DNA of 64,000 nucleotides from Candidatus Latescibacterota bacterium (GTDB taxonomy: Bacteria > Latescibacterota > UBA2968 > UBA8231), in assembly GCA_965203175.1 (NCBI GenBank), contig OZ241867.1:4192001-4256000 (forward strand), in the 5' to 3' direction. Within the stretch, counting starts at the first letter, position 1; each line of letters starts with the position of its first letter. Made by a program: the position numbers and the translations under genes. The notes beneath the pieces are model-generated. The model worked only from the letters and a program-made list of their open reading frames with translations. It was not told where the DNA came from and did no database searches. Positions 4,232 through 61,000 of the stretch are shown here, in pieces.

Positions 4232-5203
4232 ATGAAAGCAGTGCGTTTCCACCAGTGCGGAGGCCCTGAAGTCCTCACCTATGAGGACGTGCCCGAGCCC
4301 ACACCTAGGCCGGGCGAGGCCGTAGTCGAAATCAAAGCCATAGGCTTGAATTATATCGACACTTATCACCGCGGCGGGCTATACCCAGTCGAGCTGCCCT
4401 GCATCCCTGGCATGGAAGCCGCCGGAATCGTCGCGCGCGTCGGCGAGGGGGTAGAGGGTGTGCAAGTGGGTGATCGCGTGGCCTATGCCGGGGTGATGGG
4501 GTCGTACGCCGCAGAAGCGGCCGTGTCCGCTGACCGATTGGTTCCTCTGCCTGACTCAGCGTCCTATCAGGTGGGGGCCGCCGCTTTGCTACAAGGCATG
4601 ACGGCGCACTACCTAGCGCATGGATCCTATCGGTTGGGCCGCGAAGACACGGCTTTGATCCACGCTGGGGCTGGCGGCGTGGGCTTGCTCCTGATTCAGA
4701 TGGCTAAGCGGTGTGGAGCGCAGGTGTTTTGCACGGTCTCAACCGAGGAAAAGGAGCAGTTGGCTCGGGGGGCCGGGGCTGACGAAGTCATCCGCTATAC
4801 TGAGCGAGACTTTGAACAGGACGTCATGGCACTCACCGACGGGCGCGGGGTTGATGTGGTGTACGATTCCGTGGGTCAGGCGACCTTTGACAAGAGCTTG
4901 AACGTGCTCAGGCCCTTGGGTTACTTGGTGTTGTTCGGTCAGTCGAGTGGCCCGGTCCCGCCCTTTGATGCCGGAATCCTCAGCACCAAGGGGTCGCTCT
5001 TTTTGACTCGGCCGACCATGCTGCACTACATCCAGACCCGCGAGGAGCTATTGGAACGCGCTGGCGCGGTGTTGGAATGGATCGGTAGCGGCGAGTTGGC
5101 GCTGCGTATCAGCGAGCAGTTCGCCTTGTCGGACGCGGCTGAAGCCCACCGCGCCCTGCAGGGGCGCAAGACGACCGGCAAGGTTGTCCTCATACCCGAT
5201 TGA
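4232..5203 (+). CDS. qor: NADPH:quinone oxidoreductase (zeta-crystallin family)
   Basis: GGPEVL, LLQGMTAHYL, HAGAGGVG, GSLFLTRP, TTGKVVL. Confidence 0.9.
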   Translation: MKAVRFHQCGGPEVLTYEDVPEPTPRPGEAVVEIKAIGLNYIDTYHRGGLYPVELPCIPGMEAAGIVARVGEGVEGVQVGDRVAYAGVMGSYAAEAAVSADRLVPLPDSASYQVGAAALLQGMTAHYLAHGSYRLGREDTALIHAGAGGVGLLLIQMAKRCGAQVFCTVSTEEKEQLARGAGADEVIRYTERDFEQDVMALTDGRGVDVVYDSVGQATFDKSLNVLRPLGYLVLFGQSSGPVPPFDAGILSTKGSLFLTRPTMLHYIQTREELLERAGAVLEWIGSGELALRISEQFALSDAAEAHRALQGRKTTGKVVLIPD

Positions 5204-47288: not shown

Positions 47289-48155
47289 CTAATGCCCTTC
47301 GTGCGTGTCTATCCCATGGAGGGCGCTGGATTCAACGTAATACAGTATGTAGGCGAGGCCGATCCCTACGAGGAGGGACACGATGAGCTTGCCGCGATCG
47401 TGGCTGTGGAAATGGATCTCCGGTAGCAAGTCGCTCAAGGCAATGCACAGGAACGCGCCCGCCGCAAAAGCCAGCACATAGCCAACTGTTGCCCCTCCTT
47501 CTAGGTCAAGCAATTCCACACCTTCAAAGCTCGCTATAGCCACCACAGGGCACAGGATGGCAAAGCCGACATTGGCCAATGTCCGGGCGCGCTGGCTGTG
47601 ACCGGCGGACTTCATCATGCCGATAATGGAGTACGCATCGAGCGGCTTGTGCAGTAGAATGGCGAGGAACACCCCCAGGCCCGCCAATGCAACTCCGTCT
47701 TCATGCGACGGCCCTATCTTCATGATGGTACCCAGCGCGATTCCTTCGGTCACGGTGTGCACCCCTAGGCCTATGGCAACGCCGAACAAACTCCGCGAAT
47801 GGACGACACTGTGGCCGTGATCATGGTCATCGTCATCGTACAGATCGCTCGCCTCACTGCTGAAATCGTGCTGATGAAAGTGAAAGATGCGCAACAAGAA
47901 AATCATCAGGACCATGCCGAGCACCATCCATCCCACGGCTCTTTCTACAATGCCTGTCCCGGAGATGCGCTCGAGACTGTGGGGTAGCAGGTGAAACATG
48001 GCGACGCCGAGGATGAAGCCGGCCACAAGACTCATCACGATCTGAGTGCGCGTGTGCGTCATAGTACCCAAAGCCGCCAGCTTCCCGCCGAGAAAAGAAG
48101 CGGCAAAGATAGCGGCTGAGTAGGCCAACAAAACCAGTAGAGCGGTTGCATCCAT
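47289..48155 (-). CDS. ZIP-family metal transporter
   Basis: HLLPH, His-rich loop HFHQH/HDHGH, HTVTEG, LHKPLD, DLLPE. Confidence 0.9.
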   Translation of the reverse strand: MDATALLVLLAYSAAIFAASFLGGKLAALGTMTHTRTQIVMSLVAGFILGVAMFHLLPHSLERISGTGIVERAVGWMVLGMVLMIFLLRIFHFHQHDFSSEASDLYDDDDHDHGHSVVHSRSLFGVAIGLGVHTVTEGIALGTIMKIGPSHEDGVALAGLGVFLAILLHKPLDAYSIIGMMKSAGHSQRARTLANVGFAILCPVVAIASFEGVELLDLEGGATVGYVLAFAAGAFLCIALSDLLPEIHFHSHDRGKLIVSLLVGIGLAYILYYVESSALHGIDTHEGH

Positions 48156-48281: not shown

Positions 48282-49535
48282 TCAGGTGCTTTCACACCTA
48301 TCGCCCGTACTGGACCGGAAGCGAAGATTGAGCAGCATATCCTCGTAACCACGGCGCAGGGCACCGGCGCGAAAGCGCCAGACGATCAGGGCGATGAGGA
48401 GCAAAGCGCTGCCCCATTGCAGGAACTGAATGGCCGGCGCATGGGAGGCGCCGAGGTTGACGGAAATCGCCAGACCAGCCGCGAGAAGCAGCGCGTCGAT
48501 GGCAATGCCGAGGACGACCGTAACCGCAATAACAGCGGCGACGTAGATGGATGCGAAGCGGGAGCCAAACTGGCTGACGATGATCGCGATGGTCCCCGTG
48601 TTGGTGGCCGGTCCAGTCATCAGAAAAATCAGCGCCGCGCCGGGACTGACCCCCTTGGCAACTAGCGCGGCGGCGATTGGAGTACTGGCGGAGGCGCAGA
48701 TATAAAGAGGGATGCCGATCAGCACCATGACCGGATAGGACAGCCAGCGGGCATACTCGTGCGCCATCAGATCGCTCGGAATCGCCAGAAAGAGCACACC
48801 GCCCAGCACGACCCCCACCAACAGCGCAAAGAGAATGTCGTCGGCGATCTCAATGAAGCCATAGCGCAAGATGTGCCTGACCAGCTTTTTGAAGTCGAGA
48901 CCTTGATTGTCGGTGGGGACTTCTGCCGCAGAAGAATTACCGGTGGATTGTCGGCCAGCGATTCCCTTCAACCAATTGACTAGTAAAATCTTCAGTTGCG
49001 AGGGACTGACGTAGCAATCATCCCTACCAGCTATGAGGGATTGGTGATTATCGTGCTCACAGTCATGGCAGTGAGCCGGGCCGCTCGCCTCGGCTTCATC
49101 TCGGTCGTCTCTTATCAGTCCGATGCAAAAGATACCGGCGACGACTGCGGTGATGAAGCTGATGACGGGCCGAACAATGGCAACGATGGGTCCGAAAAAG
49201 GCGTTGGTTACTAGGATCGAGTCTGCGCCTGTCTCCGGCGCGGTGATCAAGAAAGACATGCAGGACGAACGGGACGCCCCCTTGTTACGCATCTCGGCAA
49301 CCACAGGGACGACCGAACAACTGCACAGCGGCACGGGTACGCCGATGGCCGAACTCATGGTCACGGATTTTAGACTATCGTCGCGGAGCCAGCGGAGAAT
49401 GGCCTGACGGGAGATGAATACATGGATCAGGCCGGAAAGAAACAGCCCTAGCAACAGCATGGGCGCTAGCAACAAGAAGGAGGACCAGAGGAAGGCAAAA
49501 AAACTGGCCGATATCCCAAAAAATTCAAAGGTCAT
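48282..49535 (-). CDS. SO_0444/DUF318-family permease, copy A
   Basis: PLCSCSVVP, TAPETGADS, YICASASTP, GPATN; start by homology to copy B. Confidence 0.88.
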   Translation of the reverse strand: MTFEFFGISASFFAFLWSSFLLLAPMLLLGLFLSGLIHVFISRQAILRWLRDDSLKSVTMSSAIGVPVPLCSCSVVPVVAEMRNKGASRSSCMSFLITAPETGADSILVTNAFFGPIVAIVRPVISFITAVVAGIFCIGLIRDDRDEAEASGPAHCHDCEHDNHQSLIAGRDDCYVSPSQLKILLVNWLKGIAGRQSTGNSSAAEVPTDNQGLDFKKLVRHILRYGFIEIADDILFALLVGVVLGGVLFLAIPSDLMAHEYARWLSYPVMVLIGIPLYICASASTPIAAALVAKGVSPGAALIFLMTGPATNTGTIAIIVSQFGSRFASIYVAAVIAVTVVLGIAIDALLLAAGLAISVNLGASHAPAIQFLQWGSALLLIALIVWRFRAGALRRGYEDMLLNLRFRSSTGDRCEST

Positions 49536-49604
49536 TGTGATAAGAAGTAGACATTGACTAGAAAGGGCAAGCCTCCGATCAGAGTAGCTTCTGGGGGTTT
49601 GAAG

Positions 49605-49633
49605 TTGCGTTTTTTCTGCCGGACTACTAAAAT
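49605..49633 (+). promoter_or_regulatory. Sigma70-like promoter, copy 1
   Basis: TTGCGT-17 bp-TAAAAT, hexamers identical in copy 2 despite spacer divergence. Confidence 0.7.
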
Positions 49634-49641
49634 CAGAGGTC

Positions 49642-49956
49642 ATGCTAACGCGCAAAGCGGACCTCTCGACGTGCTCGGCATCCTCGCTGGCCCTGCTGGT
49701 GCTGACCGTGCTCTTTGCGGCTGTAAGCTGCGGCCTACCCTTCAGCCACCAGCTTTTCCACGAGAGCCACGTCGAGCCTGGGAACTGCCCGGCTTACCTG
49801 TTACAGAGCGGTCTATCGCTCCTTTTTGGGGGCTTGGCGCTCGTGCTCATAGCGCTGAGTGTCTCTGAGCCAAGTCCGTCCGCTCCGCGCACAATACCGT
49901 TACCCCTTTTTACCCCTCGCTTTACTCATCTCAACCGAGGCCCGCCCCGGTGCTAG
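49642..49956 (+). CDS. DUF2946/CruR-like leader protein ending in RGPP, copy 1
   Basis: Hydrophobic segment, HQLFHESH, CPAY, Pro-rich linker, PRFTHLNRGPPRC*. Confidence 0.75.
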   Translation: MLTRKADLSTCSASSLALLVLTVLFAAVSCGLPFSHQLFHESHVEPGNCPAYLLQSGLSLLFGGLALVLIALSVSEPSPSAPRTIPLPLFTPRFTHLNRGPPRC

Positions 49957-50091
49957 TGCATCCACGCTGGTAAACCGCCTCAGTGCGTGGGTGTCTCTCT
50001 CCAGATTCAATTCGCGTACCATTAACCTCCCGTCTTGTGCGCAAGCCTAGGAAAGCGTGCATGGACGACCAAACCATTGGAGACTAGCACC

Positions 50092-50598
50092 ATGTTTAAA
50101 AGAAGTATGTCTGCGTTGAGCATTTTCGCCTTGGCTCTCTTTGTTGCGAGCTGCGGCGACGACGACAATCCCGTCGATCCTGACCTCCATGATGAACACG
50201 CTGAGGCCATCGGCCTGATTATACGCGATAGCGGCGCTGAAATCGTCCGCGTTGAAAGCGGTCAGGTGACCGGCGAGATTGAAGTCGGTCACGGCAAGGA
50301 AACCGCTCTGCTTTCCGTGCGCTTTATCGCCGAAGACGGCGATCTCTTCACCCCAGACGAAGACGAGGATTTTTCTCTCGGTTGGGAAATTGCCGACGAG
50401 AGCATCGCCGAAGTAGAGCATCATGCCGAGGACGGCGCTTGGGCTTTTCACATCCTCGGCTTAGAGGAAGGCGAGACTACTATCCGCATCAAAATCAACC
50501 ACGAAGGCCACGCCGATTTCGTCTCGCCGGAGATTGAAATCCACGTCAGCGAGGACGGACCCGGCGAGGAACATGATGATCACGATGACGAAGGGTAA
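50092..50598 (+). CDS. His/Asp/Glu-rich lipoprotein, copy 1
   Basis: Lipobox VASC, LHDEHAE, HEGH, EEHDDHDDEG; GGAG RBS. Confidence 0.85.
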   Translation: MFKRSMSALSIFALALFVASCGDDDNPVDPDLHDEHAEAIGLIIRDSGAEIVRVESGQVTGEIEVGHGKETALLSVRFIAEDGDLFTPDEDEDFSLGWEIADESIAEVEHHAEDGAWAFHILGLEEGETTIRIKINHEGHADFVSPEIEIHVSEDGPGEEHDDHDDEG

Positions 50599-50626
50599 AG
50601 CGGTTAGACCTGCATAGGTAGAGGTG

Positions 50627-50659
50627 ACGCGGGACCGGACGCAAGCACCGGTCCCGCGT
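50627..50659 (+). other. Strong GC stem-loop after lipoprotein copy 1 (counterpart at 51760-51788)
   Basis: ACGCGGGACCGG-loop-CCGGTCCCGCGT, no U-tract. Confidence 0.65.
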
Positions 50660-50705
50660 ACTTATGTCAAGCTTAATTGGATAGCCGACAGACAAAAGGT
50701 TGAAG

Positions 50706-50734
50706 TTGCGTTTTTTTGCCAGATCACTTAAAAT
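50706..50734 (+). promoter_or_regulatory. Sigma70-like promoter, copy 2
   Basis: TTGCGT-17 bp-TAAAAT. Confidence 0.7.
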
Positions 50735-50742
50735 CAAAAGTT

Positions 50743-51075
50743 ATGCTAAGGCGCAAAGCGGACATCTCGATAGGCTCGGCGTCCGCGCTGGCCCTGCTGG
50801 CGCTGACCGTGCTCTTTGCGGCTGTAAGCTGCGGCCTACCCTTCGGCCACCAGCTTTGCCACGAGAGCCACGAGAGCCACGAGAGCCACGTCGAGCCTGA
50901 GAACTGTCCGGCTTGCCTGTTGCAGAGCAGCCTATCGCTCCTTTTTGGGGGCTTGGCGCTCGCGGTCGTGGCGCTGAATGCCTTAGAGCCAAATCCGTCC
51001 GCTCTGCGCACAGTACCTTTACCTCTTTTTTCTCCTCGCTTTACCCACCTCAACCGAGGCCCGCCCCGGTGCTAG
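50743..51075 (+). CDS. DUF2946/CruR-like leader protein ending in RGPP, copy 2
   Basis: HQLCHESHESHESH, intact CPAC, PRFTHLNRGPPRC*; start by homology to copy 1. Confidence 0.8.
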   Translation: MLRRKADISIGSASALALLALTVLFAAVSCGLPFGHQLCHESHESHESHVEPENCPACLLQSSLSLLFGGLALAVVALNALEPNPSALRTVPLPLFSPRFTHLNRGPPRC

Positions 51076-51212
51076 TGCATCCACGCTGGTAAATCACCTC
51101 AGTGCGTGGGTGTCTCTCTCCAGATCCAATTCGCGTACCATTAAATTCCCGTTCTGCGCGCAACGTCTAGGGAAAGTGCGCGTGGACGGTCAAACCATTG
51201 GAGACTAGCACC

Positions 51213-51719
51213 ATGTTTAAAAGAAGTATGTCTGCGTTGAGCATTTTCGCCTTGGCTCTGTTTATGGCTAGCTGCGGCGACGACGACAATCCCGTCGATC
51301 CTGACCTCCATGATGAACATGCCGAGGCTATCGGCCTAGTTATACGCGATAGCGGCACTGAAATCGTCCGCGTTGAAAGCGGTCAGGTGACCGGCGAGAT
51401 TGAAGTCGGTCACGGCAAGGAAACCGCCCTGCTTTCCGTGCGCTTTATCGCCGAAGACGGCGATCTCTTCACCCCAGACGAAGACGAGGATTTTTCTCTC
51501 GGTTGGGAAATTGCCGACGAGAGCATCGCCGAAGTAGAGCATCATGCCGAGGACGGCGCTTGGGCTTTTCACATCCTCGGCTTAGAGGAAGGCGAGACTA
51601 CTATCCGCATCAAAATCAACCACGAAGGCCACGCCGATTTCGTCTCGCCGGAGATTGAAATCCACGTCAGTGAGGACGGACCCGGTGAGGAACACGATGA
51701 TCACGATGACGAAGGGTAA
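51213..51719 (+). CDS. His/Asp/Glu-rich lipoprotein, copy 2
   Basis: 168 aa, three substitutions versus copy 1. Confidence 0.85.
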   Translation: MFKRSMSALSIFALALFMASCGDDDNPVDPDLHDEHAEAIGLVIRDSGTEIVRVESGQVTGEIEVGHGKETALLSVRFIAEDGDLFTPDEDEDFSLGWEIADESIAEVEHHAEDGAWAFHILGLEEGETTIRIKINHEGHADFVSPEIEIHVSEDGPGEEHDDHDDEG

Positions 51720-51807
51720 AGTGGTTAGATCTGCTGCGGCCTTCATAGGTAAAAGCGACGCGGGACCGGACGCAAACTCCGGTCCCGTGCACTTATGTCA
51801 AGGCCAA

Positions 51808-54048
51808 TTGAATAGCCGACAGATAAAAAACACAGGCCGCAGGCTACTTTGGAAACTCACATCCATAATCGGCCTAGCAGTCGGTCCCGTTTGGGGCGAC
51901 CAGACTGGCGCTCTAGCCGGGCACGTGATCGACGCCGAAAGCGGCCAACCCGTCGGTTGGACTACCGTCGTCATTGAGGGGCTCGAACGGGCGCGGATGA
52001 GCGACGCCGAGGGGTACTTCTTCTTCGCCAACGTACCCGCCGGTGCGCACGTCTTGCAAAGCCTACACGTCGGCTACCAAGAGGCCCACTTTAAGGTGAG
52101 GGTCGTCGCGGGGGATACCACCCATGTCGATCTAGCTATCGGCTACGAGTCCCTGCAGGTAGAGGGGATTCTCATCGAAGGCGAATACACGCGCCCTGTT
52201 TCTCCACTCCAAGCACCCGAAGTTGTCTTCAGCGGCAGCAAGCTGCGGCAGAATTTGAGCCGCACCATCGCCGAGACCATTGACTACGAGCCGGGCATTG
52301 CCCAGCGCTCAATGGGGCCAGCGCCCGCGCGTCCAGTCCTGCGCGGGCTAGGCGGCGACCGCTTGCTGATGATCGAAGACGGCGAGCGCACCGGCGATTT
52401 GTCTGCCACCTCCTCGGACCACGCCGTGGCCATCGAGCCGATGACTACCGAGCGCATTGAGGTCGTGCGCGGCCCTCGCACCTTGCTCTACGGGTCCAAT
52501 GCCTTGGCCGGGGTTGTCAATGTGGTGCGGGGATACGTGCCCTCTGAGCAGCCCGATGGTTTGGGGGGATCTGTGACGTATCAAGGAGAGAGCGTCAACC
52601 GAGGTTTGTCTGGCGGCCTGACTCTCGAACAGCCGCTCGGCCCACTGGCGCTGCGCTTCGACAGCAGTTTGCGCAATGCCGACGATATTGCCACGCCGCG
52701 TGGGGTACTCGCCAATACGAACATCCGCACGGGCAATGCCTCAGTCGGCCTGAGTCTGGTTCGTCCTTGGGGGCACGTAGGCGCGTCCGGTAGCTTGTAC
52801 GACTCCGACTATGGCATCCCTCCCGATGCAGAGAGCGGCCACCCGGACGGCGTATCCATTGATCTCCAGCGCCAGCACCTCGAAGGGCGCGGCGAAATCC
52901 TCACCGGGCCGGATTGGCTCCAGCGCCTAGAATTGCACCACGCGTTTTCGCGCTATCAGCACGGCGAATACGAAGCTAGTGGCAACTTGGGGCTGGAGTA
53001 CGGGGTGCTCACGCACAACAGCGGCGCGCTGGCCCACCTAGATCGCATGGGGCCTTTTGCCAACGGCGTGACTGGCTTGTGGTTCGAGTACCGCAACTAT
53101 GCCGCGGCCGGGCTCAACTATACGCCGCCGGCCGAGGAATACGCCGGTGCTTTGTTCGCGTACCAGGAGTGGGAGCATGGGCCTTGGGCGGCCAATGCGG
53201 CTTGGCGCGTTGACGCCCGCCGCGTCGAGCCGCGCGAGGAGCGCTATTCGCGCCGGGTCGGCAGCATCCAGACGCGCGACTTTGCCGGGATGTCTGCCGG
53301 TTTGTCCAATCACTATCGCGCCAGTTCGACTTTGACGTTGGGCTCGACCTTGATGCGCACCTTTCGCGCTCCTGGCATCGAAGAGCTGTTTTCCGAAGGA
53401 CCGCATCTGGCCGCCTATTCGTACGAGGTGGGCAACGGCTCCCTCGACAGCGAACGCGGCCTAGGACTGGAGCTGTTCGCCGACTACCACCGCGAAGAAG
53501 GCCATGTACACGTGGCCGTCTTCCGCAACGCGATCAATGGGTTCATTTTTTTCAAGAATAGCGGCGAGCGCAGTCTGCGGCGCGCCGATCTTTTTCTCTA
53601 TCAGACTCTGGGAGAGCGCGTCCTCATGCACGGTGCCGAAGTTACCTTCGATTGGCATCTGGCGGAGCCTTGGAAAGTGGCCGGTACCCTCAGCTATGTG
53701 CGCGGCCGGCTCACTGATCTCGACGACGAACCTCTGCCGCGGCTGCCACCTCTGCAAGGGCACTTGGCCCTGACTTGCGAACCTACTGAGGCGCTGAGTG
53801 CGACTATTGACGTGCGCTTGGCTGCGGAACAGGACCAGATCGGCGAGTTTGAAGAGCCTACAGAAGGCTACGCAGTGCTGGATCTTTCGAGCCAGTACTA
53901 CGCGCAGTGGGGGGGCCGTCTGCACACCTTCGCCCTGACCTTGGAAAACGCCACTGACGCGGTGTACCGCAACCACCTCAACCGCGTCAAAGATATCCTG
54001 CCCGAGCCAGGCCGCAATCTGCGCCTGCTGCACAAGATATTCTTCTGA
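51808..54048 (+). CDS. ZnuD-like TonB-dependent receptor
   Basis: RPVLRGLGGDR, SSDHAV, IEVVRGP.TLLYG, YGIP, EELFSEGPHLA, YRNHL, terminal Phe; TTG start uncertain. Confidence 0.88.
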   Translation: MNSRQIKNTGRRLLWKLTSIIGLAVGPVWGDQTGALAGHVIDAESGQPVGWTTVVIEGLERARMSDAEGYFFFANVPAGAHVLQSLHVGYQEAHFKVRVVAGDTTHVDLAIGYESLQVEGILIEGEYTRPVSPLQAPEVVFSGSKLRQNLSRTIAETIDYEPGIAQRSMGPAPARPVLRGLGGDRLLMIEDGERTGDLSATSSDHAVAIEPMTTERIEVVRGPRTLLYGSNALAGVVNVVRGYVPSEQPDGLGGSVTYQGESVNRGLSGGLTLEQPLGPLALRFDSSLRNADDIATPRGVLANTNIRTGNASVGLSLVRPWGHVGASGSLYDSDYGIPPDAESGHPDGVSIDLQRQHLEGRGEILTGPDWLQRLELHHAFSRYQHGEYEASGNLGLEYGVLTHNSGALAHLDRMGPFANGVTGLWFEYRNYAAAGLNYTPPAEEYAGALFAYQEWEHGPWAANAAWRVDARRVEPREERYSRRVGSIQTRDFAGMSAGLSNHYRASSTLTLGSTLMRTFRAPGIEELFSEGPHLAAYSYEVGNGSLDSERGLGLELFADYHREEGHVHVAVFRNAINGFIFFKNSGERSLRRADLFLYQTLGERVLMHGAEVTFDWHLAEPWKVAGTLSYVRGRLTDLDDEPLPRLPPLQGHLALTCEPTEALSATIDVRLAAEQDQIGEFEEPTEGYAVLDLSSQYYAQWGGRLHTFALTLENATDAVYRNHLNRVKDILPEPGRNLRLLHKIFF

Positions 54049-54089
54049 GAATTCGTCTGGATTCACTTACCGGACTGGGATTGCACAGA

Positions 54090-55367
54090 ATGACCTTTGA
54101 TTTTCTTGGGATATTAACCAGTTTTTTTGCCTTCCTCTGGTCTTCCTTTTTACTGCTAGCCCCCATGCTTCTGCTGGGGTTCCTCCTCTCCGGCCTGATT
54201 CATGTGTTTATCTCCCGTCAGGCCGTTCTCCGCTGGCTCCACGACGACAGCCTAAAATCCGTCACCTTGAGTTCGGCCATTGGCGTACCCGTGCCGCTGT
54301 GCAGTTGTTCGGTCGTGCCCGTGGTGGCCGAGATGCGTAACAAGGGGGCGTCCCGTTCGTCCTGCATGTCCTTCCTGATCACCGCGCCGGAAACAGGTGC
54401 GGATTCGATTTTAGTCACTAACGCCTTTTTCGGACCCATCGTTGCCATCGTCCGGCCCGTCATCAGCTTCATCACTGCGGTCGTCGCCGGTATCTTTTGC
54501 ATCGGACTGATAAGAGACGACCGAAATGAAGCCGAGGTAAGCGGCCACGATCACTACCATGAATGTAGCCACGATCATCACCAATCCCTCATAGCCGACA
54601 GGGATGATTGCTACGTCAGTCCCGCGCAACTGAAGGGCTTACTGGTCAACTGGTTGAAGGGAATCGCTGGCCGACCATCCACCGGTGGTTCTTCTGCGGC
54701 AGCAGTCCCCACCGACAATCAAGGTCTCGACTTCAAAAAGCTGATCAAGCACATCTTGCGCTATGGCTTCATTGAGATCGCCGACGACATTCTCTTTGCG
54801 CTGTTGGTGGGGGTCGTGCTGGGCGGTGTGCTCTTTCTGGCGATTCCGAGCGATCTGATGGCGCACGAGTACGCCCGCTGGCTGTCCTATCCGGTCATGG
54901 TGCTGATCGGCATTCCCCTCTATATCTGCGCCTCCGCCAGTACTCCGATCGCCGCCGCGCTAGTTGCCAAGGGGGTCAGCCCCGGCGCAGCGCTGATTTT
55001 TCTGATGACTGGACCGGCCACCAACACGGGCACGATCGCGATCATCGTCAGCCAATTCGGCTCCCGCTTCGCATCCATTTACGTCGCCGCAGTCATCGCG
55101 GTTACAGTCGTCCTCGGCATTGCCATCGACGCGCTGCTTCTCGCGGCTGGTCTGGCGATTTCCGTCAACCTCGGCGCCTCTCATGCGCCAGCCATTCAGT
55201 TCCTGCAATGGGGCAGCGCTTTGCTCCTCATCGCCCTGATCGTCTGGCGCTTTCGCGCCGGTGCCCTGCGCCATGGCTACGAGGATATGCTGCTCAATCT
55301 TCGCTTCCGGTCCAGCGCGGGCGATCGGGATCTGTCAGCGCGAGACCTCAGCAGTGGTAAGTCTTAA
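54090..55367 (+). CDS. SO_0444/DUF318-family permease, copy B
   Basis: Same motifs as copy A; loop HDHYHECSHDHH. Confidence 0.88.
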   Translation: MTFDFLGILTSFFAFLWSSFLLLAPMLLLGFLLSGLIHVFISRQAVLRWLHDDSLKSVTLSSAIGVPVPLCSCSVVPVVAEMRNKGASRSSCMSFLITAPETGADSILVTNAFFGPIVAIVRPVISFITAVVAGIFCIGLIRDDRNEAEVSGHDHYHECSHDHHQSLIADRDDCYVSPAQLKGLLVNWLKGIAGRPSTGGSSAAAVPTDNQGLDFKKLIKHILRYGFIEIADDILFALLVGVVLGGVLFLAIPSDLMAHEYARWLSYPVMVLIGIPLYICASASTPIAAALVAKGVSPGAALIFLMTGPATNTGTIAIIVSQFGSRFASIYVAAVIAVTVVLGIAIDALLLAAGLAISVNLGASHAPAIQFLQWGSALLLIALIVWRFRAGALRHGYEDMLLNLRFRSSAGDRDLSARDLSSGKS

Positions 55368-55398: not shown

Positions 55399-56646
55399 AT
55401 GAACACGCCGCGCAAAGTACCTAAAGTGCCCCTGTCAGAGAGACTGCCCGTTACTGTCCTGTCCGGCTTTCTCGGCGCAGGCAAGACCTCTCTTCTCAAC
55501 AACGTGCTCAACAACCGCGAGGGCATGCGCGTCGCGGTCATCGTCAACGACATGAGCGAGGTCAACATCGACGCGGCGCTCGTTGAGCACGGCGGTGCCC
55601 AGCTCTCGCGGACCGAGGAGAAGCTGGTCGAGATGTCGAACGGCTGCATCTGCTGCACGCTGCGAGACGACCTGCTCGCCGAGGTCTCACGGCTCGCACA
55701 GGAGAGACGCTTCGACTACCTGCTCATCGAGTCCACTGGGATCTCGGAGCCCATTCCGGTCGCGCAGACCTTCACCTTCGAGGACGAGAACGGTGTGAGC
55801 CTGAGTCAGGTTTCGCGCCTCGACACCATGGTCACGGTCGTGGACGCGGCGAGCTTCCTGCGGGACTACAACGCCGCCGAAGCGCTCCAAGACCGCGGTG
55901 AGTCGCTGGGCGAAGAAGATCTCCGGACGGTGACCGACCTGCTTATCGACCAGATCGAGTTCGCCGACGTCATCGTGCTCAACAAGCTCGATCTCGTGAG
56001 CAACGATCAGGCTCTCGAGGTCGAGGCTATCGTGAAAGCGTTCAACCCCGGCGCGAAGATCCTCATGGCGACGCGCGGACAGATCCCGCTCGAATGCGTG
56101 CTCGACACGGGCCTGTTCGACTACGAGAAGGCGGAGAGCTCCGCCGGCTGGATTCGAGAGCTTCAGGGTGAGCACACGCCGGAGACCGAGGAGTACGGGA
56201 TCTCGAGCTTCACCTATCGGACGTCGCAGCCCTTCGACGCCGAGAAGCTGTGGGCGTTCCTGCACGACGCCGAGAACTGGAGCGGCGTGCTCCGCTCGAA
56301 GGGCTTCTTCTGGGTCGCCGCTGACCATCGGATCCTCTACGAGTGGGCTCAAGCCGGCGGCGTCTTCAACGTGAACCCCGCCGGGATGTGGTGGGCGGCC
56401 GTGCCTCGCAAATACTGGGAGCACCCCGAGGGTCAGCGACCTGACCAGCAGTCGGGCTGGGATCCTCGCTTCGGCGATCGCGCGCAGCAGCTCGTCTTCA
56501 TCGGCCAGCAGATGCACGAGGCGGCGATACGCGCTCGCCTCAACGCGTGCCTGCTCGACGAGCGCCTCGCCGCCGCTGACAGCAAGGCCTGGGCAGCGCT
56601 CCGGAACCCGTTTCCGGAGCTTCTCATGGACGAGGAGGCAGCATGA
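55399..56646 (+). CDS. COG0523 (ZigA/YciC-like) metallochaperone GTPase
   Basis: [37 protein letters not shown]. Confidence 0.93.
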
Positions 56647-56714
56647 CCGAGACTGTCTCATCCGTTTTGGCGAAAGGGTCACCGACATCTCATGTCGCAG
56701 GGAGAAGAGAGAAC

Positions 56715-57014
56715 ATGTTGATCAACACATCACCACGTCGCCCGAACCGCGAACGGGTTCGATATATCAAAGAGGCATTGCGCGAGGCGCTGAGCCTTCC
56801 CGATGACATGACAGTCACGGTCACCGAGCTGGCTTGTCTCGAAGAAGGCTGCGCGCCCGTCGAAACCGTGATTGGCCTGCTTCGGCCCGATGCACCACAG
56901 CTTCAGTGCAAGCTACACAAACCCGTGGACGCCGTTGACGCCAAGGATCTGGTCCGGGTCTGCACGGCGTGGGGCTTCGACGTCCAGATTGCCATCCCCG
57001 AACCACTCACCTAG
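56715..57014 (+). CDS. Small Cys-motif protein between COG0523 genes
   Basis: ELACLEEGCAPVET; alternative start 56643. Confidence 0.7.
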   Translation: MLINTSPRRPNRERVRYIKEALREALSLPDDMTVTVTELACLEEGCAPVETVIGLLRPDAPQLQCKLHKPVDAVDAKDLVRVCTAWGFDVQIAIPEPLT

Positions 57015-57023
57015 GAGAATTAG

Positions 57024-58370
57024 ATGAATACGCCTCAAAAAGTACCCGTAACGATCCTCACCGGCTTCCTCGGCTCTGGCAAGACGACCCTACTCAACCG
57101 GATCTTGAGTGAGGAGCACGGCAAGCGCATTGCCGTGATCGAGAACGAGTATGGAGAAGTCGGCATCGATCAGGCGCTCGTCATCAACGCTGACGAGGAG
57201 ATCTTTGAGATGTCGAATGGCTGCATCTGCTGCACGGTGCGCGGAGACCTGATTCGCGTGCTCGGCAATCTCATGAAGCGCCGCGACAAGTTCGACTATG
57301 TGTTGGTGGAGACCACAGGGCTGGCCGATCCCGGTCCGGTCGCTCAGACGTTCTTCATGGACGACGAGATTCGCGCGGAGTTCTCGCTTGACGGAATCGT
57401 CACGCTCGTCGATGCAGCCCACATTGAGCAGCAGCTCGGCCGAAGCGACGAAAGCACGGAGCAAATCGCGTTCGCAGACATCCTCGTGCTCAACAAGACG
57501 GACCTCGTCAACGGCGAGGCGCTCGACGGACTCGAATCTCGGCTCCGAGACATGAACCGAATGGCGCGAGTCGTGCGCAGCGAGCAGGCGAACGTCTCCG
57601 TCGATACGGTACTCAACCTCGACGCCTTCGACTTGGACCAGGCGCTCGAGCGTCGCCCCACCTTCCTCGAGCCGGAGTATCCATTCGAATGGACTGGAGT
57701 CTATTCGCTCGATATGGGCCGCTACGAACTCAGCCTCGCCGATGGACCTGATCCGGCGATGTCGCTCGTCGTCGTGTCTGACCAGGGCACGGATGACGCT
57801 GCCCTCCGTGAGGGTGCGGAGTGGTGTGTGCGGCGGTACGCCGAACCTGCGGAGCTTATTGGCCCGGGGGAAGATATTCCGGTCGGAAAGCATGTGAACC
57901 TCCAGCTCGATTCCCCAGGGCGCAAGTCGTTCTTCTTGGAGGTCGATACACAAGTGCAGATTGGCCTCTACGCCCAGCACCTCGCGGAGGAGTTCGATCT
58001 CCAACTGACGAACGCGGATGGAGCGACAATCAGGCAAGAGGTCGAGCGAACCTGGGTCGCCCAGCACGAGCACGACGACGAGGTGGGCTCGATCGCGATC
58101 GAGCGGGACGGCGACGTCGATATCGTCAGGCTCAACGCTTGGCTTACCATACTGCTCGGTGAGCGCGGGGTGGACATCTTCCGCATGAAGGGCTTCATCA
58201 GCCTCGCAGGTGAGTCGCGTCGCTTCGTCTTCCAGGGGGTTCACATGCTTTTTGACGGCCAGCCAGAGCGCGAATGGGGGGACGAGCCCCGCCGCAATCA
58301 ACTCGTCTTCATCGGCCGCAACCTCGATGAGCAGAGCATGCGGCAGGGGTTCGAAGCATGTCTGATTTGA
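57024..58370 (+). CDS. COG0523/CobW-family GTPase with internal inserted domain
   Basis: GFLGSGKT, GCICC, ETTGLADPGP, insert after YPFEW, FRMKG, FQGVH. Confidence 0.92.
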   Translation: MNTPQKVPVTILTGFLGSGKTTLLNRILSEEHGKRIAVIENEYGEVGIDQALVINADEEIFEMSNGCICCTVRGDLIRVLGNLMKRRDKFDYVLVETTGLADPGPVAQTFFMDDEIRAEFSLDGIVTLVDAAHIEQQLGRSDESTEQIAFADILVLNKTDLVNGEALDGLESRLRDMNRMARVVRSEQANVSVDTVLNLDAFDLDQALERRPTFLEPEYPFEWTGVYSLDMGRYELSLADGPDPAMSLVVVSDQGTDDAALREGAEWCVRRYAEPAELIGPGEDIPVGKHVNLQLDSPGRKSFFLEVDTQVQIGLYAQHLAEEFDLQLTNADGATIRQEVERTWVAQHEHDDEVGSIAIERDGDVDIVRLNAWLTILLGERGVDIFRMKGFISLAGESRRFVFQGVHMLFDGQPEREWGDEPRRNQLVFIGRNLDEQSMRQGFEACLI

Positions 58371-59291: not shown

Positions 59292-60389
59292 TTATTTCGC
59301 CGCAGGCTGCCGAAGCAAATCAAGATCGGCATCAGACGCGGTATCCTGATGAGGATCCTTCTCCGTTTGGCACGCATCGAAGCGGCTTTGCAGCTCGCAA
59401 TCGTCGATTCCACCTTCCTCACCGATAAAGACCAACTGTGTCCCCGGACTCTCGTCGCCCCACGGCTCACCAATAATCAAACGCGCCCGTTTGCCGGCAA
59501 CGTGGACGATTCCCTTCCGACTGGGAATGTCGGAAAGGTAAACAATCCCTTTGGCTCGGTAGATAGTCGCAGGTAGAGTTTTCACCGCATCAAGCACAGC
59601 CCCACGTGACAGAGGTTTGTTCGTCGTATAGCACCACGTGTTGAAGACAAGCGTATGGTCCGTGTGGTGTTCGTGATGGTTCGCGTCAGCGTGGTCGTGT
59701 CCATGGGCCTCGCCGTCCGCATGTATGTGAACATCCAGACCTGGTTTCCCCGCAAAGCGGTGGAGGTCGTATGTCCCGATACCGAGTACCAAATCGAGCG
59801 GAACCTCACCAAAAGTAGCTTCGAGGATACGCGCTCTCGGAACGGTATCTCTGACAAAGTTTGCCAAATCCTCCCGCTCTTCATCATTGACCAGGTCCAG
59901 CTTGTTCAGCACCACAATGTCTGCCATGGCGATCTGGTCTACCGCGAGTCTACGATGTTTCTCGTTCACGTGGTGAATCTGCTCCGCATCGACCACGGTC
60001 AGGACACTGTCCACTCGGGTCCGAGACTGCAATTCGGCAGCCAGGAAGGTCAATGAAACCGCCGCCGGGTCAGATACGCCGCTCGTTTCAACGACGATAT
60101 ACTCCGGCGGGTTTGGGCCCTGAATCAACTGAACCGTTGCTTCGAGCAGGTCATCGCGAATCGAGCAACAGATACACCCGTTGGAAAGGTTGATGGTGGA
60201 TTCCCCGGAGACCCCAGAGACCAACTCGGCGTCAATGTTGATCTCTCCAAAGTCGTTGACCAACACTGCCACGCGCAATCCGTGGTCGGCGTTGAGAATG
60301 TGGTTGAGCAGGGAGGTTTTGCCCGCACCTAAAAAGCCGCTGATAATTGTTACTGGAATAGGTTCTTTTGAGTCCCGGCTTTCAGCCAT
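59292..60389 (-). CDS. COG0523/CobW-family GTPase with His-rich linker
   Basis: [43 protein letters not shown]; start ATG after GGAGG. Confidence 0.92.
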   Translation of the reverse strand: MAESRDSKEPIPVTIISGFLGAGKTSLLNHILNADHGLRVAVLVNDFGEINIDAELVSGVSGESTINLSNGCICCSIRDDLLEATVQLIQGPNPPEYIVVETSGVSDPAAVSLTFLAAELQSRTRVDSVLTVVDAEQIHHVNEKHRRLAVDQIAMADIVVLNKLDLVNDEEREDLANFVRDTVPRARILEATFGEVPLDLVLGIGTYDLHRFAGKPGLDVHIHADGEAHGHDHADANHHEHHTDHTLVFNTWCYTTNKPLSRGAVLDAVKTLPATIYRAKGIVYLSDIPSRKGIVHVAGKRARLIIGEPWGDESPGTQLVFIGEEGGIDDCELQSRFDACQTEKDPHQDTASDADLDLLRQPAAK

Positions 60390-60439
60390 TGATTCCCTCC
60401 TGGGGGCGCGCGACCCCGTGGTGGCGGCGGGGTCGCAGC

Positions 60440-61000
60440 TCACCGAGCTACCGCCCGCCTGTAGGGCTCGATCGACTCGACGTCCATCGAGTAGCCAAAA
60501 CTGACATTGGTGATGGAGTCGTAACCGTCCTCACCAAGCTTGCTCGTATCGTGACCAGTCTTCAGGCGGCCAGAGATCCAGACCGGCCGCCGCATCTGCT
60601 GCAGGTCATGGGCTTGCTCGAGACTGCAGCGGATAACCTGGTTGGCCGGCGGCGGCGGGGTATGGAGACAGGCACCAAGATAGGGCATCAACAGGAATTC
60701 GCGGATCCGTGTTCCTTTGTATTCCAAGGGCAATACGTAGCCCGGAATCCTGACCGTCTGGCCATCGAGCTCCTTGACCACCGGTGCCTTGTCGAGCATT
60801 TCTTGGGCCTTCTCCCGCAACGCGAAGTACTCTTCGTCGCTGAGTGCGGCGTACTCCTCGTCGCTGAGTTCATCGAACACGGCGTAGGGATTCCAGCCCT
60901 CGGGAACGAGCTGGTCCCACAGGATCTCGCGCGGTGAGTCCGAGGCGGCTGCGCTGGTGACGAGCAGCAACACGAGCAATCGTTGGCGAAACATGGGCAT
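60440..61000 (-). CDS. DUF3299 (ZrgD-like) periplasmic protein
   Basis: WDQLVP, VRIPGYVLPL, EFLLMPYLGACLHTPPPPANQ; start after AGGAGG. Confidence 0.88.
   Translation of the reverse strand: MPMFRQRLLVLLLVTSAAASDSPREILWDQLVPEGWNPYAVFDELSDEEYAALSDEEYFALREKAQEMLDKAPVVKELDGQTVRIPGYVLPLEYKGTRIREFLLMPYLGACLHTPPPPANQVIRCSLEQAHDLQQMRRPVWISGRLKTGHDTSKLGEDGYDSITNVSFGYSMDVESIEPYRRAVAR

Follow-up and report, generated by a model that had tools for sequence, protein, structure and literature searches.

What is the function of a small open reading frame (ORF) that ends in an arrest-like RGPP motif and stands before a lipoprotein gene? We addressed this question in a stretch of 64,000 nucleotides from a Candidatus Latescibacterota bacterium (assembly GCA_965203175.1, contig OZ241867.1, positions 4,192,001 to 4,256,000 of the forward strand). 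This stretch is termed the window, and coordinates refer to it unless stated otherwise. The window carries two tandem modules, in each of which a lipoprotein gene starts 135-137 nucleotides after a leader ORF; the gene for a TonB-dependent receptor follows behind them. An earlier note on this DNA had proposed that the leader is a metal-sensing arrest peptide, that its last codons pair with the ribosome-binding site (RBS) of the lipoprotein gene and that a stalled ribosome would undo this pairing. Of this interpretation the leader type, the conserved helix, its position relative to the ribosome footprint and the zinc-like context held, while the claimed novelty and the release of the Shine-Dalgarno sequence (SD) in the window did not. 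Altogether, the modules probably represent attenuators of the CruR/CutF type in which arrest would be released by a metal, with zinc as the best guess. That the device consists of an arrest leader and a helix directed against the start region is considered likely.

Leader peptides and their putative arrest core

Both leaders in the window were found to end in RGPPRC, with RGPP two residues before the stop codon. Leader 1 contains, in this order, an N-terminal hydrophobic segment, a loop with the motif H-x3-H...C-P-A-Y, a second hydrophobic segment and the tail PRFTHLNRGPPRC followed by the stop. Judged by eye, hydrophobic residues are found at positions ~14-31 in the 104- and 110-residue leaders. 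The metal motif of copy 2 is CPAC plus HQLCHESHESHESH, and in both copies 46 residues separate the His/Cys motif from the arrest core. An alignment of 24 diverse leaders left H36, C55, R105, P107, and P108 invariant, the first Cys and one His being the only invariant residues of the metal motif.

The leaders of the same genus (24 distinct sequences of 104 codons) gave a ratio of non-synonymous to synonymous substitutions (dN/dS) of 0.43. The codon diversity of the tail was 0.073, 0.016, and 0.129 at codon positions 1, 2, and 3, respectively, and the R-G-P-P codons varied only synonymously among relatives. We therefore conclude that the leader ORF is translated and that its tail is selected as a peptide. 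Arrest would be expected at the two proline codons, CCG (49942-44) occupying the P site and CCC (49945-47) the A site, a placement borrowed from the toeprint of CruR (PMC12992588).

These data bear on the possibility that the small ORF encodes a working two-helix membrane protein that binds metal, and that the helix described below (P1) provides ordinary translational coupling with no regulated arrest. The two hydrophobic segments, the conserved His/Cys loop and the moderate dN/dS over the whole ORF would suit such a protein, and a ribosome terminating at the stop codon would open P1 too. However, it is the hydrophobic segments that were found to be the least conserved parts of the leader, whereas R-x-P-P is invariant, with 2-3 residues left to the stop and a constant spacing to the Cys motif. 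RGPP is moreover a strong arrest core and the most avoided tetrapeptide in many phyla (PMC12992588). We regard a working protein as very unlikely.

Using a profile of the lipoprotein, which was present in 50 of 61 related genomes, we collected 80 loci from named records. Most are metagenome-assembled genomes of Candidatus Latescibacterota, up to 96% identical; the remaining records are labeled Gemmatimonadetes, Calditrichia, Ignavibacteria/Melioribacter, Balneolaceae, Bacteroidetes, and Longimicrobiales. An upstream ORF on the same strand ending in R/K-x-P-P was identified in 75 of the 80 loci and was not found in L068, L078, L079, L120, and L132; among 20 further loci of the same class 19 had such a leader. 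The receptor gene followed the lipoprotein gene in 73 of the 80 loci. The core of the 75 distinct leaders was RAPP in 27, RGPP in 26, RSPP in 21, and KAPP in one. In the related loci the R-A/G/S-P-P core is followed by 2-7 residues, by two in 45 and by three in 24 of the distinct leaders. A Cys motif was located 42-46 residues upstream of the core in 70 of the 75, and CxxC was present in 43.

The two window leaders share the traits of CruR/CutF-type leaders: they are shorter than 150 residues, begin with a hydrophobic segment, carry a RAPP-like motif within the last 15 residues and come first before a lipoprotein and a TonB receptor gene on the same strand. Thus the likeness to CruR put forward in the earlier note is borne out by the core under protein-level selection, the 46-residue spacing and the position before a TonB receptor. 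The proposed search with hidden Markov models of DUF2946 (PF11162) left both window leaders below the gathering cut-off. Copy 2 matched weakly, over positions 33-117 of the 117 in the profile (E 0.012; 16.8 bits, with the cut-off at 23.7), copy 1 did not match, and 7 of 24 relatives matched at E<=0.1 (best 1.1e-4). A DUF2946 scan of the genome itself returned weak matches only. Searching 5.8 billion proteins with a leader profile yielded 139 matches; PF11162 was annotated on one of the 120 listed, and the few named ones were called 'hypothetical protein'. The window leaders therefore represent a distant and essentially unannotated branch of the CruR/CutF-like leaders.

Tandem leader pairs were compared in the window and in L004, L005, L007, L008, L009, L011, L012, and L017. 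Two conserved types recur: the receptor-proximal lipoprotein is preceded by HQLCHExH...CPAC and the distal one by HQLFHESL/H...CPAY, so the leader duplication must be older than the species of the genus, and the ligand sets have diverged. The His-rich loop changes by units of nine nucleotides, with three HES units in leader 2 (50804-50848), one in leader 1 (49757) and HGSHGSHGSH in L005. RNA-library contigs of relatives were found to have an 18-nucleotide deletion at 50858 and a 9-nucleotide insertion at 49757. Given these unit changes and indels, the length of the metal loop is polymorphic.

Pairing of the leader end with the lipoprotein start region

An inverted-repeat search found GGTGCTAGT (49949-49957), at the end of the leader ORF 49642-49956, to be perfectly complementary over nine nucleotides to ACTAGCACC (50083-50091), which sits between GGAGA and the ATG of the lipoprotein gene. 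The arms in copy 2 (51068-51076 and 51204-51212) are identical. The RGPPRC end, the exact repeat and its second copy are thus present as first described. In both copies the minimum-energy and the centroid fold included the helix P1, which there closes a multibranch structure together with hairpin A, CTCCA (49999-50003) paired to TGGAG (50078-82), and hairpin B. The 5' arm falls at +8..+16 from the expected P site, which places it inside the footprint of a stalled ribosome. A further pairing suggested previously, TCCA (49961-64) with TGGA (50078-81), was possible in two-strand duplex models of relatives but was unused in the full folds; there, 49958-49967 folds back locally on 49985-49994, and TGGAG is taken by CTCCA.

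The helix was followed through relatives in an alignment of 27 intergenic regions from the genus, with five regions carrying large insertions and two duplicates left out. RNAalifold recovered P1, hairpin A, CUCCA:UGGAG, and hairpin B, with 97.8% of the cells paired. Five pairs had changed on both sides, compared to 1.5 in shuffled alignments, and 2 of 500 shuffles reached five. P1 itself was paired in 97.9% of cells; five cells were mismatched, five changes were of the wobble kind, and one pair was compensated (L022). Nucleotide diversity was 0.076 in paired and 0.187 in unpaired columns, and in L081/L083 the arms of hairpin A had changed yet were still complementary.

Outside the genus the same places pair by other sequences. 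The leader of a sister family terminates in ...RSPPVVS, and its last codons and stop, (G)UAGUCUCCUGAAUA, complement UAUUCAGGAGACUA, the SD of the lipoprotein gene; here, where the stop has changed from TGA to TAA, TCA has turned into TTA, and TGAAAT has its counterpart in ATTTCA. In other loci the stop region CCUGAGCAU pairs with AUGCUCAGG, which comprises the start codon and codons 2-3, or the Ala-Pro-Pro codons GCUCCUCC pair with GGAGGAG. Further pairs are GCUUUAUUCUCUUAA with UUAAGGAGAAUAAAGC and CGUCUUCAU with AUGAAGACG. In Ignavibacteria/Melioribacter the spacer is just 43-63 nucleotides long and is mainly engaged in anti-SD pairing.

When all 20-nucleotide segments were compared as partners of the RBS, the best one overlapped the leader end in 40 of 52 junctions; in 39 of 75 it came from the tail zone, which makes up ~10% of the segments. 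Cognate duplexes of tail and start region were also ranked against dissimilar non-cognate pairs in a swap test: 41 of 74 fell within the top 5%, and 23 of 74 outranked every such pair. In 62 of 74 distinct junctions the duplex reached -14 kcal/mol or better. Among these 62, at least half of the 5' arm lay within -12..+18 of the P site in 61, and the 3' arm touched the SD zone in 61 and covered the AUG in 51. The covariation across homologous loci that had been asked for was thus found: the pairing is kept in several phyla with differing sequences and compensatory changes. Judged from these alignments, the anti-RBS helix is an architecture conserved across several phyla. The natural covariation shows that pairing between stop region and start region is the solution that recurs, which speaks for RBS occlusion as a general output that extends to uptake operons.

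We modeled the effect of a stall by masking -12..+16 around the P site, with a mid-spacer mask as control, and read out the energy required to open -15..+5 of the lipoprotein start. Over 74 loci this energy was 11.2 kcal/mol in free RNA, 7.8 kcal/mol when stall-masked and 10.2 kcal/mol with the control mask. A drop of at least 3 kcal/mol was seen in 42 of the 74 loci, compared to 8 of 61 for the control. As a read-out, the mean probability that the start region is paired hardly responded (0.71 in free RNA, 0.61 under the stall mask, and 0.68 under the control mask), and the opening energy was used instead.

Based on these data the following sequence of events is proposed. Each tandem module would open with a CruR/CutF-type leader of ~104 residues and two hydrophobic segments, on which the ribosome would stall with the CCG/CCC proline codons in the P and A sites. 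Its footprint would cover GGUGCUAGU (+8..+16), which in free mRNA would be paired with ACUAGCACC between SD and AUG. With this arm kept single-stranded, opening the lipoprotein start would cost less and lipoprotein would be made, and the ZnuD-like receptor might be co-expressed by translational coupling or relief of polarity. Binding of a metal, most likely zinc, in the nascent His/Cys loop beside the second hydrophobic segment would release the arrest, upon which the ribosome would terminate, the helix would re-form and expression would fall. We infer, with somewhat better than even confidence, that the metal releases the stall rather than inducing it.

Several observations weigh against this reading. 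Neither window leader reaches the gathering cut-off of DUF2946, and leader 1 has CPAY instead of CxxC. The metal is deduced from neighboring genes only, and COG0523, ZIP, and ArsP genes lie within ± 5 kb of 16, 14, and 15 of the 80 loci, respectively. Related genomes are not independent samples, and all counts given here describe the data and are no probabilities. As the sequences of the genus are close, covariation within it is thin taken alone and stems largely from the one divergent sequence L022; P1 has mismatched cells in L004, L020, L021, L022, and L023. No good duplex was formed in 12 of the 74 junctions; the exceptions include the Calditrichia record, part of a RAPPVS clade with spacers of 215-418 nucleotides, and L114, L115, L123, L128, L130, and L131.

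The modeled stall is also less effective in the window itself. The opening energy fell from 9.3 to 7.5 kcal/mol in copy 1 (control 13.0) and from 10.1 to 6.8 kcal/mol in copy 2 (control 10.8), i.e. the predicted gain in accessibility is 1.8-3.3 kcal/mol. Since the control mask gave 13.0, the noise is similar in size to the effect in copy 1. With the 5' arm masked, the SD stays paired to the internal CUCCA, which lies outside the footprint (paired probability 0.89-0.95). The constrained folding proposed in the earlier note therefore gave a divided result: the opening energy falls and the masked arm is inside the footprint, but the SD of the window is not freed. As the model keeps the SD paired to CUCCA, a stall would in this genus open the arm at the spacer and AUG, and would weaken but not abolish occlusion.

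Taken from a single sequence the 9-mer is not beyond chance, because 571 nucleotides hold 14 inverted pairs, two of them perfect 9-mers, and the z-scores of the folds are weak (-1.2 and -2.3 for the two copies). Such figures would also be obtained for an inverted repeat that has no function. On the other hand, the repeat persists in the two copies and also among relatives, where compensatory and wobble changes are seen, and independent sequence solutions occur at the same place elsewhere. It is from this conservation and covariation, seen at the level of sequence, that P1 derives its significance, and a functionless repeat is scarcely credible.

The last point against RBS occlusion as the output concerns Rho. 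A stalled ribosome could shield a rut site, and its release would let Rho end transcription ahead of the lipoprotein and receptor genes, with the helix playing a secondary role, e.g. in pausing or RNA stability. This model has a precedent in the same peptide family (PMC9426467). In the window a bubble of C over G covers the last ~100 nucleotides of the leader (49842-49979; C 0.38-0.42 vs. G 0.14-0.21) on a strand that is otherwise G-rich, the linker between hairpins A and B is C-rich and G-poor, and the genome has a rho gene (671.9 bits). The RAPPVS clade with its long spacers does without pairing of tail and start region. However, the spacer is strongly structured with conserved helices, in Ignavibacteria/Melioribacter it is very short and mostly engaged in anti-SD pairing, and across clades changes in the leader tail go along with changes in the start-region arm, a coupling for which a rut model has no need. 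Rho termination as the sole output is thus unlikely, although it may act together with RBS occlusion. The output named in the earlier note, RBS occlusion, is supported by the conserved pairing, but the C>G bubble and rho would fit a Rho output as well.

Some further variation was seen in this region. Five relatives (L006, L010, L013, L015, and, in its second module, L017) carry an insertion of 70-160 nucleotides with terminal inverted repeats in the loop of hairpin A. It spares P1 and the stems of hairpin A and resembles a small mobile element that only the loop tolerates. RNA-library contigs from sponge and coral communities, 90-99% alike, bridge the leader tail, the spacer and the lipoprotein start (e.g. 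49951-50099 in X3 and 51053-51328 in X2); they are weak evidence, indicating presence and bridging only, with DNA carry-over possible, and do not define a single transcript, a level or an end.

Gene neighborhood and the possible metal

The features of the locus are collected in Table 1.

Table 1. Positions of leader, RNA and gene features in the window.
Feature	Position	Strand	Basis
Upstream element TTGCGT-17 nt-TAAAAT	49605..49633	+	Conserved in both copies and relatives; promoter by eye
Leader 1, 104 aa, ends ...FTHLNRGPPRC and stop	49642..49956	+	ORF call; no Pfam match
R-G-P-P codons CGA GGC CCG CCC of leader 1	49936..49947	+	Synonymous-only changes in relatives
P1 5' arm GGTGCTAGT; codons R, C, stop + 1 nt	49949..49957	+	Inverted-repeat search, folds
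Hairpin A, 49958-67 paired with 49985-94, variable loop	49958..49994	+	Folds; 99.2% of cells paired
Internal anti-SD CTCCA, partner TGGAG 50078-50082	49999..50003	+	Folds; 100% of cells paired
Hairpin B	50031..50067	+	Folds of both copies; changes mostly one-sided, wobble-compatible
SD GGAGA (50079-50083), P1 3' arm ACTAGCACC (50083-50091) and ATG (50092) of lipoprotein 1	50079..50094	+	
Lipoprotein 1, 168 aa, His/Asp/Glu-rich, lipobox ...VASC	50092..50598	+	
Leader 2, 110 aa, HESHESHESH expansion, C-P-A-C, tail RGPPRC and stop	50743..51075	+	
P1 5' arm, copy 2	51068..51076	+	Same letters as copy 1
SD, P1 3' arm (51204-51212) and ATG of lipoprotein 2	51200..51215	+	
Lipoprotein 2, 98% identical to copy 1	51213..51719	+	
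TonB-dependent receptor, ZnuD-like, listed TTG start	51655..54048	+	Profile and PDB sequence comparison
ZIP-family transporter	47289..48155	-	Family scan
Two COG0523 (CobW-type) GTPase genes, 123-aa ORF between	55399..58370	+	Family scan
Third COG0523 GTPase, best model ZigA, below curated cut-off	59292..60443	-	NCBIfam-type model

The neighbors of the modules are a ZIP transporter, two ArsP-type permeases, two COG0523 GTPases and a third COG0523 protein with ZigA as best model. ZIP, the three COG0523 genes, znuABC and a Fur-family gene all lie within ~15 kb. The best model for the receptor was ZnuD (1.1e-49; 169.8 bits against an NCBIfam cut-off of 950), while an OprC-type model gave 2.9e-22; the nearest PDB sequence was likewise ZnuD (4rdr, 1.3e-35), followed by the copper porin OprC (6.6e-14). 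In the Calditrichia record, too, the module is flanked by COG0523 genes. The view that the context is zinc-like rather than copper-like was thus supported by ZIP, COG0523, the ZnuD-like receptor and the znuABC neighbors. We take zinc as the best guess for the signal in this genus, with confidence evenly balanced; other phyla are less constrained.

The same device might sense copper, or nickel or cobalt, rather than zinc. The characterized family members all respond to copper, and His-only relatives are tied to nickel/cobalt by their neighbors (PMC9973294). CxxC is common among the leaders, COG0523 is not wholly zinc-specific, as the NCBIfam model also matches CobW, and most loci outside Latescibacterota/Calditrichia lack a diagnostic neighbor. 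Against another metal stand the receptor, which is nearer to ZnuD than to OprC in both comparisons, and the ZIP, COG0523, znuABC, and Fur-family genes nearby. Furthermore, no copper family was found among 20 neighboring proteins scanned from 10 loci of other clades, a small sample in which two COG0523 proteins were found, both in the Calditrichia record. The invariant residues of the lipoprotein, Glu-His and His-x2-His-x-Asp, contain no Met or Cys beyond that of the lipobox. A metal other than zinc is rather unlikely as the signal.

If zinc is sensed, the leader would tentatively be a first zinc-sensing nascent chain, with a loop 42-46 residues from the peptidyl-transferase center and before the second membrane segment, whose occupancy by zinc would release RGPP. 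This tentative reading would add that the last codons and stop of the leader serve as the strand against the start region, and that such sensors have spread over Latescibacterota, Ignavibacteriota, Bacteroidota-related, and neighboring phyla. The two leaders of the window, HxxxCHExH...CxxC and HxxxFHESx...CxxY, could set two thresholds for two surface zinc-binding lipoproteins. In our literature search, from which supplementary tables that may list these leaders or contexts were left out, no zinc-linked family member was found, and the word 'zinc' has no occurrence in the main texts of PMC9426467, PMC12992588, PMC9973294, and bioRxiv 10.1101/2025.02.05.636593.

For the lipoprotein, no Pfam, NCBIfam or PDB sequence match was found. 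Its predicted structure is an Ig-like beta-sandwich (predicted local distance difference test, pLDDT, 76.9), for which a fold search returned only generic Ig-like domains (template-modeling score <=0.44) that are uninformative on the metal. In the genomes G056 and G057 the lipoprotein domain occurs three times in one frame of 417-534 residues (e.g. L032 736-1989).

The ArsP-type permease genes (48282-49655 on the minus strand and 54081-55367 on the plus strand) are very similar, encode His/Cys-rich loops and flank the leader-lipoprotein-receptor block in opposite orientations. To the right of the window (G000 4255.8-4265.8 kb; L133 3854-13754) we found a MerC-like gene, and a Fur-family gene, ZnuA, ZnuB (ABC-3), and ZnuC on the minus strand. 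The only two Fur-family matches of the genome are both located there, and one of them (L133 ~4480-4761, plus strand) has an in-frame TAG.

A sigma-70 scan returned no sites, and the promoter assigned upstream of leader 1 was recognized by eye only. A conserved upstream 18-mer was found only at the two leaders, and in an alignment of the upstream regions, beyond which no search for a Zur box was made, no palindromic operator was recognized. A TAAAAT-like hexamer stands 8-9 nucleotides before each leader ATG (49628-49644 and 50729-50745) with no conserved SD between, and the mRNA that encodes the leader may be leaderless or nearly so. For the lipoprotein genes SD pairing is plausible, since the 3' end of the 16S rRNA carries CCUCC.

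No intrinsic terminator was identified in the spacer between leader and lipoprotein gene; two terminator-like sites were found elsewhere, fewer than in shuffled sequences. Each lipoprotein gene is followed by a strong G+C hairpin, GCGGGACCGG...CCGGTCCCGC, without a T-run (50629-50657 and 51761-51787). The listed TTG start of the receptor (51655) overlaps lipoprotein 2, and the second G+C hairpin would lie inside the receptor ORF as listed; the real start is therefore probably further downstream. An Rfam scan of 49300-51900 for riboswitches and other known RNAs gave only a sub-threshold match to tpke11 (51746-51817, 25.4 bits against 43), which overlaps the second G+C hairpin.

Comparison with known systems

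Control of arrest peptides by metals has so far been documented only for copper, and the two copper models disagree: in CruR the output is Rho and the metal releases the stall, whereas in CutF the output is RBS occlusion and the metal induces the stall. A zinc-type context would extend metal sensing by nascent chains beyond copper. Through the present locus and its relatives the family gains a large branch, for the most part without annotation, in uncultured and FCB-group phyla, which explains why such small ORFs and His-rich lipoproteins have been missed or called hypothetical in annotations. The parts are compact, with an arrest tail overlapping the anti-SD strand, and are testable in vitro.

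The closest relative is CruR (bp2923) of Bordetella pertussis, a DUF2946 protein with CxxC, RAPP three residues from the end and 45 ± 1-2 residues in between (PMC9426467). Like CruR, the present leaders are the small first ORF of an operon for a TonB transporter, begin with a hydrophobic segment, place a Cys motif ~45 residues before an R-A/G-P-P core that is 2-3 residues from the stop, and have a C>G bubble at the 3' end of the leader. The uptake logic, in which the metal should switch the operon off, is also the same. CruR was found to stall in vitro with two proline codons in the P and A sites (PMC12992588). Unlike CruR, where the core is RAPP, the window leaders have RGPP (RSPP or RAPP in relatives), and their Pfam score is below the cut-off. 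The directly regulated gene would here be a lipoprotein gene, followed by a ZnuD-like and not a CrtA-type receptor and without a PepSY_TM gene; the paper on the CrtA receptor family deals with beta- and gamma-Proteobacteria with PepSY_TM partners. Finally, the spacer of CruR is unstructured and Rho-dependent and its metal is copper, whereas the present spacer is structured, paired to the start region and found in a zinc context.

With CutF of Rhodobacter capsulatus (PMC9973294; bioRxiv 10.1101/2025.02.05.636593) the modules would share the principle that stalling melts a stem-loop shielding the SD. CutF differs in having CxxxC and a PPP motif and in requiring EF-P and a signal peptide. In that system copper induces the stall and thereby turns on a detoxifying oxidase (cutO), whereas uptake genes are at stake here, and the strand directed against the start region is here formed by the leader's own last codons and stop. 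According to the authors of the CutF work, CutF-like proteins are frequent in Bacteroidota and not all are copper-specific (PMC9973294).

SecM, MifM, and ApdA/ApdP resemble the device proposed here in R-A/G-P-P type arrest with proline codons in the P and A sites and in the opening of an RBS-hiding helix by the stall, but they report Sec or YidC activity by pulling force and precede secretion genes (PMC12992588). The same paper found RGPP to give the most robust stalling when set in ApdP, ApcA, and SecM and RSPP to be partially permissive. It also found small ORFs with RGPP/RAPP to be enriched before genes for TonB receptors. The window leaders agree with this catalog class, i.e. small ORFs with C-terminal RGPP/RAPP and a localization signal before a TonB receptor in Gram-negative phyla. 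The words 'zinc', 'lipoprotein', 'stem-loop', and 'secondary structure' do not occur in the main text of that paper.

A leader of the DUF2946 type combined with stalling and an SD-shielding stem-loop has been published for CutF/cutO (PMC9973294; bioRxiv 10.1101/2025.02.05.636593). Because of this work and of the upstream ORFs before TonB receptors in PMC12992588, the claim of an undescribed combination in the earlier note was too strong. Compared to these systems, the zinc-type context and the lipoprotein gene as regulated gene appear to be new. The same appears to hold for the overlap of the arrest and stop codons with the strand against the start region, the leader with two hydrophobic segments, the tandem pair whose ligand sets differ, and the wide range in uncultured and FCB-group phyla.

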